23,652 nucleotides of DNA from Naegleria gruberi (GCA_000004985.1 GG738952.1), one strand, 5' to 3'; numbered from the stretch's first letter, positions 7,722-22,179 are shown. A program made the numbers and translations. The notes: generated by a model from the sequence alone, not told the origin.

Positions 7722-9761
7722 TCAAATAACTTCAAGCATAGCAAAGTAATTATCAATGGATAGAGTAAAGTTATTCTTGCAATAATTGATTAGATATTGA
7801 ATTTCATGTTTCATTGCCATATCAAGTAATCCAATAATTTTAACAGCATCAATTTTGTCAATTGAAATTCTATAACAATATTTGATCACAATTTCCAATA
7901 ATTCCAAATCTTCTGATTCGTCAGGTGTGAATATTCCATCATCACTCAAATCACTGAAACAAGATCCACTGTCAAATAATGCATTAAACAATGTACTTGA
8001 TGAACTCAATACAGTTTTGTGACAATATAAGTATTTGTTTTGTCCCATTTTGATTTTTACATCACTTGTTTTCATATCACCATATAATGATTCAATTGTT
8101 TGTGGTTCATTTTCAATTGTTTCCTCAATATTAATTGCAGTTGGTTCAGTAATGATCATTTTTGGAAATATGGCAGTAGCATTTCTCATAATTATTGGAA
8201 GAGTCGATAATAAAGTGTTTCCTTCTTTTGTTTGCATTTGAACAGCAGCATATTCAATGCAATGGTTATTCAATTGATCGAGAATGTAATTTTGAATACC
8301 AAATTCCTCTTTGCAAGTTTTGAGTAAATTTTCAATTGTTTCCCATTTGAAAGTAAGATTTTCTAATGTGAATGAGTTCACAAATTCACTTGTCAATGAT
8401 CTTTTCAAATCAATAAATTCACCATTCTTAAATAAACCCAAAATGAATAAAACATCCAACACTTCTTCTTTGCTAAACTTTACCTTGTTCTTATCATACA
8501 GCAAAGAATCAATTAATTTTTGAATAATTTCTTGTTGTGATGAACTCATCAAACAAAGCATCTTTTCATTCTTCAAAATATTACTAAATTTTGGTGAAAT
8601 TTTTTCAATGAGTGGAATGAATCCATAAATTTGAAATCCAAATAATTGATCTCTTGAATGTTTTTTCAAATTATATTCTATTTTGGAGTACAAGCTACTA
8701 TTTCCAGTTAATAACTTATTTCCAATATGAGGATACATTATAATATTAAAAGGTGAATCACCACTGAATCCAGCAGTTCCATTTCCTGCAATTGTTACAA
8801 TATTTCCATTTTCTAATATTTTTCTAATTCTTTGATTACTTTGATCAGAAATATAAACTTCATTATTTGAAACAAAAACACTATTAGGCCTATTCAGTTG
8901 TGCATTTGTTGCAGGACCATTATCACCACTGAATCCATAATTTCCATTTCCAGCAATTGTTATAATATTTCCATTTTCCAATATTTTTCTAATTCTTTGA
9001 TTACTTTGATCAGAAATATAAACTTCATTATTTGAAACAAAAACACTATTAGGCCTATTCAGTTGTGCATTTGTTGCAGGACCATTATCACCACTAAATC
9101 CATAATTTCCATTTCCTGCAATTGTTACAATATTTCCATTTTCCAATATTTTTCTAATTCTATGATTGCTATAATCAGTAATATAAACTTCATTATTTGA
9201 TGAAACAAAAACACTATAAGGATTATACAATTGTGCATTTGTTGCAGGACCATTATCACCACTGAATCCATAAGTTCCATTTCCAGCAATTGTTATAATA
9301 TTTCCATTTTCTAATATTTTTCTAATTCTGTTATTATGTTGATCAGTAAAATAAACTTCATTTTTCGATGAAACAAAAACACTAGAAGGATTATAAAGTT
9401 GTGCATTTGTTGCAGGACCACTATCACCACTAAATCCAACAGTTCCATTTCCAGCAATTGTTATAATATTTCCATTTTCCAATATTTTTCTAATGCTATG
9501 ATTGCTATAATCAGTAATATAAACTTCATTCTTTGATGAAACAAAAACACTACAAGGATAATTAAATTGTGCATTTGTTGCAGGACCATTATCACCACTA
9601 AATCCATAATTTCCATTTCCTGCAATTGTTACAATATTTCCATTTTCTAATATTTTTCTAATTCTATGATTACAAAAATCAGCAATATAAACTTCATTAT
9701 TTGATGAAACAAAAACACTAGAAGGATTAAACAGTTGTGCCCTCGTAACTAGTGAAGACAT
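7722..9761 (-). CDS. NHL-repeat beta-propeller protein with C-terminal BTB/POZ domain
   Basis: ATG at rc 9759-9761, stop rc 7722-7724, 679 codons. Six repeats of 55-56 aa with the NHL signature (SVFVSSKNEVYITDYSNHRIRKILENGNIVTIAGNGNYGFSGDNGPATNAQL). C-terminal residues about 540-650 match the BTB consensus (DVKIKMGQNKYLYCHKTVLSSSSTLFNALFDSG...). A15 tract lies directly upstream of the ATG. Confidence 0.75.
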   Translation of the reverse strand: MSSLVTRAQLFNPSSVFVSSNNEVYIADFCNHRIRKILENGNIVTIAGNGNYGFSGDNGPATNAQFNYPCSVFVSSKNEVYITDYSNHSIRKILENGNIITIAGNGTVGFSGDSGPATNAQLYNPSSVFVSSKNEVYFTDQHNNRIRKILENGNIITIAGNGTYGFSGDNGPATNAQLYNPYSVFVSSNNEVYITDYSNHRIRKILENGNIVTIAGNGNYGFSGDNGPATNAQLNRPNSVFVSNNEVYISDQSNQRIRKILENGNIITIAGNGNYGFSGDNGPATNAQLNRPNSVFVSNNEVYISDQSNQRIRKILENGNIVTIAGNGTAGFSGDSPFNIIMYPHIGNKLLTGNSSLYSKIEYNLKKHSRDQLFGFQIYGFIPLIEKISPKFSNILKNEKMLCLMSSSQQEIIQKLIDSLLYDKNKVKFSKEEVLDVLFILGLFKNGEFIDLKRSLTSEFVNSFTLENLTFKWETIENLLKTCKEEFGIQNYILDQLNNHCIEYAAVQMQTKEGNTLLSTLPIIMRNATAIFPKMIITEPTAINIEETIENEPQTIESLYGDMKTSDVKIKMGQNKYLYCHKTVLSSSSTLFNALFDSGSCFSDLSDDGIFTPDESEDLELLEIVIKYCYRISIDKIDAVKIIGLLDMAMKHEIQYLINYCKNNFTLSIDNYFAMLEVI
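8740..9756. repeat. tandem array of six 165/168-bp units encoding the NHL repeats
   Basis: Units beginning 8821 and 8986 are essentially identical over 165 bp. The other units are about 85-95% identical by eye. Confidence 0.8.
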
Positions 9762-9776
9762 TTTTTTTTTTTTTTT
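9762..9776 (-). promoter_or_regulatory. A15 leader tract immediately 5' of the NHL-BTB start codon
   Basis: T15 on the plus strand abutting ATG (rc). A similar A9 run lies at 16986-16994 before the ATG at 16995. Confidence 0.3.
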
Positions 9777-10070
9777 AGAAATCTAATTTATTACAATTTA
9801 ATTGTCATTCAGACTCGTGATTGAATAAATTGCTGTGAGATTGATTCAATCCACAGATACTTCAGTAATGATAGGATTGTTCACTTTGTATTCTTGGGGA
9901 ATTTAAAGTGCCATGTAGGTTTGTCATAATTTTGAGTTAAGTTTGTTGTTTGAAATTGAAAATGAGAAGTTTAGCTATTGGGCTTATCCAATTTCTTCCT
10001 TTAGTCTACTTCCAGAGATTACCAACCTATCTTTGTTAGTAAACATATTAAATAATGTTTTCATTCGTTC

Positions 10071-10580
10071 TCAATCTTGCATACCCAAGAGAGTTGGAAA
10101 GTTTGATTATTTACATCGGTCACAAATCAAGACCAGATGAGAGGAATTCATTGAATGTTTGGGAGTGCTATTATACGTTCTCGTTTGAATTTACATTGTT
10201 GATGGAGGTAGAAATATGAAGGAGAAGGGAAATTTTTGGCAGTGATTGGTTGAGTTTGAGCGGTTGTTTGAGTGATTTAGTAATGATTCTGTTAAATATC
10301 CTTTCAAGGACCACTTTATAGGATATTGGAATAATCAAGCATCTTTCTCGATCTTGCACAGAACTTCAAGAGAGTTTGATGGTTTGGATTATTTGCATCT
10401 GTCATTAACCAAGACTAGATGGGAGGAATTCATTATTAATCAATTTCACTAACTTATTCTGTTCTCATTGGATGAATATAGATTGAATAATTAATGATGG
10501 AGATAGGGAATGGATGAATATATTGAATATAAGAGTATAAATTGTATAATTGATGATGGAGAAAGGGAATGTGTGCTCAC
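10071..10580. repeat. degenerate direct repeat, about 280-bp period, about 2.2 copies (copy A 10071-10348, copy B 10349-10540, partial copy about 10541-10580)
   Basis: Direct alignment: tcaatcttgcatacccaagagagttggaaagtttgattatttacatcggtcacaaatcaagaccagatgagaggaattcatt versus tcgatcttgcacagaacttcaagagagtttgatggtttggattatttgcatctgtcattaaccaagactagatgggaggaattcatt. Tails gttctcgtttgaatttacattgttgatggaggtagaaatatgaaggagaaggg versus gttctcattggatgaatatagattgaataattaatgatggagatagggaatgg. About 75-80% identity. No ORF. Confidence 0.6.
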
Positions 10581-20486: not shown

Positions 20487-20615
20487 ATGAGCAAATTTTG
20501 TAATGACAGAGAAATTATGGCAAAGCTAGAGGAAGAGTACAAGGAATTGGAAAGGGATACTAAGAACAAGAGCTCTAATGCAAAAGAAGAAAAAAAACAA
20601 GATAAAAAGAAGTGA
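20487..20615 (+). CDS. small 42-codon Lys/Glu-rich ORF (speculative)
   Basis: ATGAGCAAATTTTGTAATGAC...AAGAAGTGA translates to MSKFCNDREIMAKLEEEYKELERDTKNKSSNAKEEKKQDKKK. Below the ORF-track cutoff. Sits in the 440-bp convergent intergenic space. Confidence 0.15.
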   Translation: MSKFCNDREIMAKLEEEYKELERDTKNKSSNAKEEKKQDKKK

Positions 20616-20648
20616 TTGATCTCCGATTTAATAAAATGTGATAAAAAG

Positions 20649-22179
20649 TTAAAGCTCAAAGTCATGTCTTATTTGTGTCAGAATTGAAGTTTTCTTCATT
20701 AGTTTAGAAACTTCACTCTTCTCAAACTTATTCTTTGAAATATCTAGAAATTCCAATAATGGTAAAGAAATATTTTCATCAGATTTCTCAATTAATTTAA
20801 CAATCATACATTTTCTAGCTGAAATATGTTTTAAATTTTGTAAATTTCCATTCACAAACAATAATTCACTCAAATCACTTATTAAAATATTAATATCCAA
20901 ATATAGATATTCCAAATAGGAAAAATTATTACATTGTGAAATGTAGGTCAATCCTTCATTTCCTATTATGTTATTTGCCAAATCCAACAATTCAATTCTA
21001 TCCAACACTCCATCACATAAATATTTTACACCTCTTGATGTAATATTCGAAAATGGAAGAAACAAATGAGTGAGATTGTAAAGACTAGACGAAATTAACA
21101 TGACACCTTCATCTCCAATTTGATTAAATCCCAAATATAGCTTCTTTACATTCAATATAGAATCACTCATTGATAAATCAACAATACATTTGATTGGAAG
21201 TTTACAAAGCGATAGATCTAAATGAATTAAATTGGAATTTGGTAAATTTTGAAGATGCGAAGCACCTTCCATAATTGGATTATCACTCAAATCTAAAACT
21301 TTCAATTTTGTGAAGGATTGGAAATAATTTCCATGGATTCTTGATTGAGATCATTATTACATAATTTCAATTCTTCCAATTGTTTAAATTTAGAAATTTC
21401 CTTAACGCATGAATATCCTAAACTANNNNNNNNNNNNNNNNNNNNNNNNNNNNNNNNNNNNNNNNNNNNNNNNNNNNNNNNNNNNNNNNNNNNNNNNNNN
21501 NNNNNNNNNNNNNNNNNNNNNNNNNNNNNNNNNNNNNNNNNNNNNNNNNNNNNNNNNNNNNNNNNNNNNNNNNNNNNNNNNNNNNNNNNNNNNNNNNNNN
21601 NNNNNNNNNNNNNNNNNNNNNNNNNNNNNNNNNNNNNNNNNNNNNNNNNNNNNNNNNNNNNNNNNNNNNNNNNNNNNNNNNNNNNNNNNNNNNNNNNNNN
21701 NNNNNNNNNNNNNNNNNNNNNNNNNNNNNNNNNNNNNNNNNNNNNNNNNNNNNNNNNNNNNNATCAATCATTAATTGTGTCAAGTGTTCCATTTCAATTT
21801 CTGAAATTTTCTCCAAAACATCTCTCGGTAAAAGTCTTGGTAAACTCAAACTCGTTAATGAACATTTCAATACATTAATGTGTTCATATAATAAATGAAT
21901 ATTTTCCTTTTTAATATACATGTTCATTAAATTTAATTCCACAATTTTAAAACAATTATTTTCATTCATCTGATGATCATCATCAATTAGATGATGAGTA
22001 GTAATAAATTTCGTCATCATGATTTGATGAAAAGTATTAAATTGATTAAATTTTAAATGGATCGGAATGAGTGAGGAAACATATTTCCATTGTTTAGAAA
22101 CTCTACTGGTTGTAAATAATAAATTCCACGGAGTCATGTAATGGAAAATGACAAATAGAGTATCATTATCAAAAAACAT
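20649..22179 (-). CDS. F-box / ribonuclease-inhibitor-type leucine-rich-repeat protein (interrupted by gap 21426-21762)
   Basis: ATG rc 22177-22179. N-terminal DTLFVIFHYMTPWNLLFTTSRVSKQWKYV matches the F-box consensus (LP.EIL..I...L....L.....VSKrWr.lv). C-terminal exon-side has RI-type LRRs (LDLSDNPIMEGASHL, LYLGFNQIGDEGVMLISSSL, LDLANNIIGNEGLTYISQ). Stop rc 20649-20651. Confidence 0.65.
21426..21762. other. assembly gap (337 N)
   Basis: Run of n characters. Confidence 0.99.

Follow-up and report, generated by a model that had tools for sequence, protein, structure and literature searches.

An F-box-DUF4116 gene in Naegleria gruberi is an artefact of an assembly gap, and the cluster of three ubiquitin-ligase adaptors around it is not supported

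The window analysed here is a complete Naegleria gruberi scaffold of 23,652 bp (GC content about 30%), for which a sequence-only reading had proposed three cullin-RING adaptor genes within 15 kb: an NHL-BTB gene, an F-box-DUF4116 gene and a gene joining an F-box to leucine-rich repeats (LRRs). The first of these stands and the last is plausible, with a marginal F-box, whereas the F-box-DUF4116 gene is produced by reading across an assembly gap. That reading had overlooked the runs of N in the window, which contains 3,349 N in six runs (913, 50, 588, 50, 1,409 and 337) plus two single N. The sized runs are most readily taken as scaffold gaps, in support of which the public gene model P0002 (EFC36045, NAEGRDRAFT_76290) places an intron over one of them, and two of the three claimed adaptor genes are interrupted by such gaps (the 1,409-N and 337-N runs). 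The features of the three loci are as follows, with lengths of proteins and protein segments in amino acids (aa); open reading frames are abbreviated ORFs, AlphaFold2 AF2 and Tandem Repeats Finder TRF.

7722-9761, minus strand: NHL-BTB gene, public model EFC36048 / NAEGRDRAFT_76287 (P0019), 679 aa; the ORF matches P0019 exactly, domains from Pfam
8736-9740, minus strand: six NHL blades, residues 8-342; a 165/168-nt tandem repeat (TRF: 5.9 copies, 90% matches), with which the repeat families agree
8073-8735, minus strand: linker domain of about 220 aa, all helices and of no known family, which joins the NHL blades to the BTB domain; conserved in all family members, helical by AF2
7770-8072, minus strand: BTB/POZ domain, residues 564-664; PF00651, with KBTBD2 and KEAP1 as relatives by family profile
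7595-7735, minus strand: out-of-frame remnant of the C-terminal extension that follows the BTB domain; tblastn match to residues 344-390 of the paralogue P0024, 97.9% identity
16995-17654, plus strand: opening 220 codons of an orphan gene that corresponds to NAEGRDRAFT_54341 (514 aa), the claimed "F-box"; 99.5% identical to residues 1-220 of P0017
17655-19063, no strand: assembly gap of 1,409 N (N run), in which the orphan gene ends and, after an intergenic spacer, the DUF4116 gene starts
19065-20207, plus strand: 3' portion of a gene for DUF4116 repeats that corresponds to NAEGRDRAFT_54340 (657 aa), disrupted by an out-of-frame deletion on its 3' side; DUF4116 E 4.3e-53
20649-21424, minus strand: LRR part, of ribonuclease-inhibitor type, of the F-box-LRR gene, in two frames split by a 1-nt frameshift near 21310-21330; LRR_6, sequence and three-frame translation
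21426-21762, no strand: assembly gap of 337 N (N run) inside the F-box-LRR gene
21763-22179, minus strand: N-terminal 139 codons of the F-box-LRR gene, with the F-box at 22069-22167; PF00646

The "1081-aa ORF" at 16962-20207 that was taken for an F-box-DUF4116 gene is open solely because its 1,409 N translate as X. The 220 residues ahead of the gap belong with P0017 (EFC36548, NAEGRDRAFT_54341), a protein of 514 aa that runs 294 aa past the shared residues and in which, at full length, we found no DUF4116 repeat and no Pfam family. An exhaustive HMMER search with these 220 residues against 1.84 billion representatives returned three proteins: P0002, P0017 and one irrelevant weak match. Behind the gap, Pfam recognises DUF4116 (PF13475; 177 bits, E 4.3e-53) in five stretches of tandem 49-aa repeats, and this sequence shares 98.4% identity with residues 211-583 of P0001 (EFC36547, NAEGRDRAFT_54340, 657 aa). 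P0001 has a Met directly ahead of its first repeat, its sole content is DUF4116 (16 matched stretches), and 210 aa lie upstream of the part that matches the window. A single 189,881-bp scaffold carries both P0017 and P0001, whose accession numbers and locus tags follow directly on one another. Because these intact copies are two neighbouring models, we conclude that the orphan gene ends and the DUF4116 gene begins within the gap, with a spacer between them; the coding sequence that is missing (882 + 630 nt) is by itself about as long as the gap.

The window therefore does not hold an F-box and DUF4116 repeats in one polypeptide: the two halves are linked by N alone, and their near-identical copies are two gene models. 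F-box-DUF4116, which had been put forward as an unusual architecture, is not a real one. The public model P0002 joins 16995-17516 to 19284-20204 by way of the intron laid over the gap, and it looks like a fusion of two unrelated genes, an apparent annotation error in the reference proteome. Among relatives of the DUF4116 part, none of the 16 retrieved has an F-box, and all 16 list PF13475 only. The family has been predicted to form an alpha-solenoid in a modelling study (PMC8078820). Compared with P0001, the DUF4116 copy in the window has lost about 60 codons out of frame close to its 3' end, and three-frame translation recovers the authentic C-terminus, IEIDSSLVKRYCI followed by a stop, in another frame at 20183-20224. 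The deletion (20172-20224, plus strand), as reconstructed from the protein comparison with P0001, appears to join two sites that share TTGAAAT, and it would fit a microhomology-mediated event.

Profile searches gave the same answer for the F-box itself. The sequence-only reading had named support from hidden Markov models (HMMs) beforehand as the test that could refute its F-box at 16995-20207, and that test came out negative: no Pfam F-box family was detected in the 231-aa piece ahead of the gap (E ≤ 0.1), in the 67-aa segment holding the supposed motif (E ≤ 10) or in full-length P0017, and phmmer found no match to the pre-gap part among the sequences of the Protein Data Bank (PDB). As a crude control, we built a profile of our own from ten F-box sequences and scanned it against 148 ORF pieces. 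With HMMER's filters off (--max), the pre-gap piece was not among the top 15 ORF pieces, and the ranking was headed by the F-box of 21763-22179 (E 8.6e-4). A single-sequence AF2 model of the pre-gap piece had a mean confidence (predicted local distance difference test, pLDDT) of 34.7 and no readable fold; its three relatives are too few for a useful alignment.

For the F-box-LRR gene, the assignment is on the whole plausible. Residues 5-37 pass the Pfam cut-off for PF00646 marginally (22.3 bits against 20.5, E 1.2e-4), and the segment still scores 21.7 bits when trimmed; the N-terminal piece that contains it had no match among PDB sequences (phmmer). On the far side of the 337-N gap, Pfam identifies LRRs at 20649-21305 on the minus strand (LRR_6, E 2.7e-13). 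These are of the ribonuclease-inhibitor type, and their closest solved relatives are ribonuclease inhibitor itself (E 2.5e-10), Ralstonia GALA and NLRP3. The F-box and LRR parts lie on the same strand, are open to both edges of the gap and have LRR-like sequence on either side of it. They likely form a single gene across the unsequenced stretch, given its shortness and the open frame on either side. The 1-nt frameshift within the LRR part lies about 100 nt from the gap edge.

The NHL-BTB assignment is confirmed. Its ORF contains NHL repeats (PF01436, E 9.7e-30; TEN_NHL, E 1.1e-31) and a BTB domain that scores 38.8 bits against a cut-off of 20.5 (PF00651, E 1.2e-9), all by Pfam. Six units of 55-56 aa could be aligned, giving a six-bladed NHL propeller. 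In the blade alignment the ratio of nonsynonymous to synonymous differences (pN/pS), taken over blades 1-5 because blade 6 was out of register and its values were excluded, ranges from about 0.4 to 2.9 on small counts. Between propeller and BTB lies the helical linker, which matches no Pfam family and no fold in the PDB (Foldseek). AF2 predicts the linker of P0024 as helical with a pLDDT of 70-87 at residues ~40-180; the model of the whole linker-plus-BTB half, computed with five sequences, has an overall pLDDT of 57, with the BTB part below 65. Foldseek of that model against the PDB gave nothing below E 0.16, and SPOP, at rank 26 with E 1.3, carries no weight. The family profile finds KBTBD2 and KEAP1 as best solved relatives among PDB sequences, weakly (E 6e-4 to 3e-3). 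The BTB domain of CP190 scores about as well. To our knowledge CP190 is not a Cul3 adaptor. In the region where Cul3 adaptors make contact through a phi-x-E motif, FDSGSCFSDLSDD aligns to FMSGLSESKQT of KBTBD2, with a possible F-S-D two residues out of register.

A lineage-specific expansion, as the sequence-only reading suggested, fits this family. At least eight gene models on at least six scaffolds, 49-100% identical (cluster members included), belong to it, and only N. gruberi proteins matched the C-terminal half of the NHL-BTB protein in a word-indexed search; that search missed exact containers of its queries (P0019 for the NHL-BTB half, P0002 and P0017 for the 220-aa piece), so its negatives need care. 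In the paralogues P0024, P0026, P0027 and P0030 the BTB domain is followed by an extension of about 50 aa at the position of the 3-box. A 3-box/BACK helical extension behind the BTB domain strengthens Cul3 binding, and we infer that the family's extension is a 3-box; Pfam's BACK family matched neither the window protein nor P0030. The window copy lacks this extension in frame: a deletion of about 25 nt shifts the frame, the ORF stops early and the tail of about 50 aa is lost, its remnant lying in frame -3 against frame -2 for the gene (tblastn, with which three-frame translation agrees). A 3-box/BACK extension of the kind found in Cul3 adaptors is accordingly absent from this copy.

The C-terminal 336 aa of the window copy are 100% identical to P0028 on the 189,881-bp scaffold, which likewise lacks an in-frame extension. 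The two lose the frame at the same spot (7728-7735) and end in different tails, EVI in the window and EVCENFLNAIFERDSQV in P0028, each followed by a stop, which suggests either a deletion-prone site or differing gene models. At the other end of the window copy, the start of the NHL-BTB gene (about 20 nt with the upstream T-run, actagtgaagacatttttttt) occurs twice, at 9748-9768 and again about 1.1 kb away at 10888-10908. The second copy heads a 31-aa ORF that starts MSSLVE and looks like the remnant of another gene start.

Three public proteins map exactly to the window (EFC36045, EFC36048 and EFC36049). Because two independent genes of the window match the 189,881-bp scaffold at 98-100% identity, the window is best read as a haplotig, or a very recent duplicate, of part of that scaffold. 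Naegleria has been described as mainly heterozygous diploid (PMC9928731). Several genes on the window scaffold are fragments or carry out-of-frame indels, and each of the three claimed adaptor loci is damaged when compared with its closest copy or with an uninterrupted reading frame. Partial decay of these gene copies is likely, since the larger deletions do not resemble base-calling errors; for the 1-nt shift adjoining the gap in the LRR gene, assembly error may be the explanation. We also considered the window as a mosaic of segments from three scaffolds and dropped this idea, as the C-terminal half of the NHL-BTB protein is identical to P0028, which is on the same scaffold as the DUF4116 pair. 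A giant-virus or bacterial origin, which low GC and the presence of BTB and F-box domains had brought to mind, was rejected in view of the exact matches to N. gruberi proteins.

A cluster of three adaptors is not supported by these observations. The pairing of a docking module with a repeat module, claimed for each gene, holds for NHL with BTB and for F-box with LRR, and fails for the DUF4116 gene. The two genes that remain come from unrelated families and lie about 11 kb apart, a proximity that may be due to chance, and two such genes do not make a receptor cluster. The NHL-BTB copies found are spread over their six or more scaffolds, with no second copy in the window. We found no counts of F-box or BTB genes for N. 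gruberi in the literature searched. A surveillance or self/non-self role for the locus is pure speculation.

In the explanation that we regard as very probable, the window is a second-copy scaffold (either the alternative haplotype or the product of a very recent segmental duplication) that carries one NHL-BTB gene, one probable F-box-LRR gene and two unrelated neighbours, the orphan and the DUF4116 gene, which a gap has fused in appearance; there is no dedicated receptor cluster. Going by domain content, NHL-BTB proteins that are intact would use the BTB domain to dimerise and, together with the C-terminal extension, to dock on Cul3, and would present the six-bladed propeller to substrates, while the F-box-LRR protein would be an FBXL-type receptor of an SCF (Skp1-Cul1-F-box) ligase, docking on Skp1-Cul1. 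The DUF4116 protein would be a stand-alone alpha-solenoid repeat protein and its 514-aa neighbour an orphan. Nothing indicates that the NHL-BTB and F-box-LRR proteins act together or as a dedicated locus. Several points weigh against this explanation. A segment of the orphan, FPMELGILDEICSF...CTSIRNIM, loosely resembles an F-box motif, and divergent protist F-boxes can escape HMMs. The adjacency of P0017 and P0001, their common strand and the stop between them rest on two public models with consecutive identifiers, not on DNA that we read. The sequences flanking the 1,409-N gap share a reading frame, for which the chance is one in three, the length of the gap being probably an estimate. Some of the frameshifts could be assembly errors of a low-coverage scaffold rather than decay.

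The reading frame leads to the possibility that a deletion truly fused the N-terminus of the orphan to DUF4116 in this copy, giving a chimeric gene like the one modelled as NAEGRDRAFT_76290, possibly with a cryptic F-box. The ORFs are indeed open to both gap edges in a shared frame, a public model joins the two parts, and the gap, at 1,409 nt, falls somewhat short of the at least 1,515 nt that the missing parts of both genes require. However, scaffold gap sizes are estimates, the gap is unsequenced and no fusion has been observed in it, the public junction is an intron over a run of N, the intact copy is two gene models, and an F-box is absent by the Pfam, PDB-sequence and home-made profile tests; we consider such a fusion very improbable. 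The frameshifts bear on a different alternative, in which the scaffold is an ordinary allelic haplotig, all of its genes are intact in the cell, and thin coverage has produced the frameshifts and truncations as errors of sequencing or assembly. Six gaps in 23.6 kb, an LRR frameshift so near a gap edge, the high identity (98-100%) to the copies on the large scaffold and the mainly heterozygous diploid state of Naegleria (PMC9928731) would all agree with this. We nevertheless think it unlikely: neither the deletion of about 25 nt in the NHL-BTB gene nor that of about 60 codons in the DUF4116 gene, the latter with its junction apparently at a short repeated sequence, resembles a base-calling error, P0028 on the large scaffold is also without an in-frame extension, and the VIT-like and actin genes described below are clearly fragments.

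The proposal of a fast-evolving accessory locus, with three diversified cullin-RING receptors for the surveillance of pathogens, symbionts or non-self, draws on the HMM support for NHL-BTB and F-box-LRR, on the multi-copy, N. gruberi-only distribution of the NHL-BTB family, on near-identical blades with few differences and a pN/pS of about 1, and on a transposase ORF within the interval. We judge it very improbable, given that the third member is a gap artefact without an F-box, that the two others are unrelated and some 11 kb apart, that the NHL-BTB paralogues are dispersed over at least six scaffolds rather than arrayed here, and that the window copies bear out-of-frame lesions. A version confined to the NHL-BTB family is quite doubtful too: its members would be Naegleria-specific Cul3 receptors whose near-identical 168-nt units are gained, lost and homogenised, with the few differences between blades at loop positions (pN/pS ~1), so that the propeller might offer a rapidly diversifying binding surface, possibly directed at proteins of the bacteria or viruses that a bacterivorous amoeba encounters.

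Taken as a second-copy scaffold with two unrelated adaptor-type genes, the window has mainly corrective value: F-box-DUF4116 is not real, and the public model NAEGRDRAFT_76290 (EFC36045) makes the same mistake. All of the genes are already public as "predicted proteins", and the surviving architectures belong to known kinds or depart from them only in minor ways. The NHL-BTB protein resembles the BTB-propeller adaptors of Cul3 (the BTB-BACK-Kelch proteins KEAP1, KBTBD2 and the KLHLs) in combining a BTB domain with a six-bladed beta-propeller, and its intact relatives also carry a helical extension of about 50 aa at the 3-box/BACK position. It differs from the KLHLs in having an NHL propeller instead of a Kelch one and in its inverted domain order, the recognition module being N-terminal and the BTB domain C-terminal, as in SPOP (MATH-BTB). 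Further differences from the BTB-BACK-Kelch proteins are the uncharacterised helical domain of about 220 aa between propeller and BTB, the absence of a Pfam BACK domain, the loss of the post-BTB extension in the window copy, and the weakness of the similarity to Cul3 adaptors (E ~1e-3). It is a modest variation on the BTB-propeller theme; if the family does bind Cul3, it would be another case of an independent pairing of BTB and propeller.

The F-box-LRR gene is ordinary, and neither gene opens a long-standing question. Like the FBXL proteins (SKP2, FBXL2, and the GALA effectors of Ralstonia, which are among its closest solved LRR relatives), it has an N-terminal F-box followed by LRRs. Unlike them, its F-box begins directly with the initiator Met, lacks the usual LP motif and is barely over the Pfam cut-off, its LRRs are of the ribonuclease-inhibitor/NLRP kind, and its continuity is broken by the 337-N gap and a frameshift. 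The DUF4116 gene resembles other PF13475 proteins, with at least five clear repeats in the window and relatives that contain DUF4116 only; it has nothing distinctive, and no ligase-docking module once the gap artefact is removed.

The remaining features lie around and between these loci.

714-3074, minus strand: 787-aa ORF piece without a Pfam family
3992-4810, 4863-5678 and 6604-7299, plus strand: Hsp70 fragment (Pfam, E 7.5e-59), cut by gaps on both sides, plus two further ORFs without a family
9762-11622, no strand: ORF-free spacer (no ORF ≥66 aa; sequence read directly)
11677-12048, plus strand, and 12065-12559, minus strand: N-terminal and C-terminal fragments of actin in opposite orientation (Pfam Actin, E 6.5e-11 and E 5.3e-32)
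12471-14315, minus strand: copy of a VIT-domain gene truncated at both the 5' and 3' ends, model EFC36049; homology to a full-length paralogue over 12522-14186
14483-14601, plus strand: complete 5S rRNA gene, flanked by the truncated VIT-like gene and the transposase ORF (Rfam RF00001, 100.3 bits, E 3.7e-21)
14819-16792, minus strand: piggyBac-type transposase ORF, 657 aa (Pfam DDE_Tnp_1_7, E 5.7e-34, profile positions 33-347 of 349)
22581-22889 and 22907-23428, plus strand: two adjacent ORFs of one DNA-alkylation-repair gene (PF08713), separated by either a short intron or a frameshift

The spacer at 9762-11622 had been described as a repeat-rich, ORF-free stretch. It is free of ORFs and is not rich in repeats: it holds one 51-nt repeat pair at 84% identity, and TRF detected no tandem repeats in it. 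The actin fragments, which lie beside a 50-N gap, are a rearranged pseudogene or a mis-join. The VIT-like copy is 98.4% identical to residues 373-927 of P0021, a protein of 974 aa on a 236,320-bp scaffold that has an N-terminal VIT domain and a C-terminal DUF2135; the window copy is without both, its N-terminal 372 aa being gone. The NHL-BTB paralogue P0024 is encoded on the same 236,320-bp scaffold, its accession number differing by two from that of P0021, and the NHL-BTB/VIT neighbourhood appears to have been duplicated.

Where several interleaved genes derived from transposable elements had been reported, the interval contains one such ORF. It resembles piggyBac transposases (DDE_Tnp_1_7) in its nearly full-length match to the catalytic domain and in its C-terminal Cys-rich tail. 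A 21-nt inverted repeat (14429-14449 and 16825-16845, 90% complementary) brackets the 5S gene together with the transposase ORF; its two arms could be the ends of the element or a chance occurrence in AT-rich DNA.

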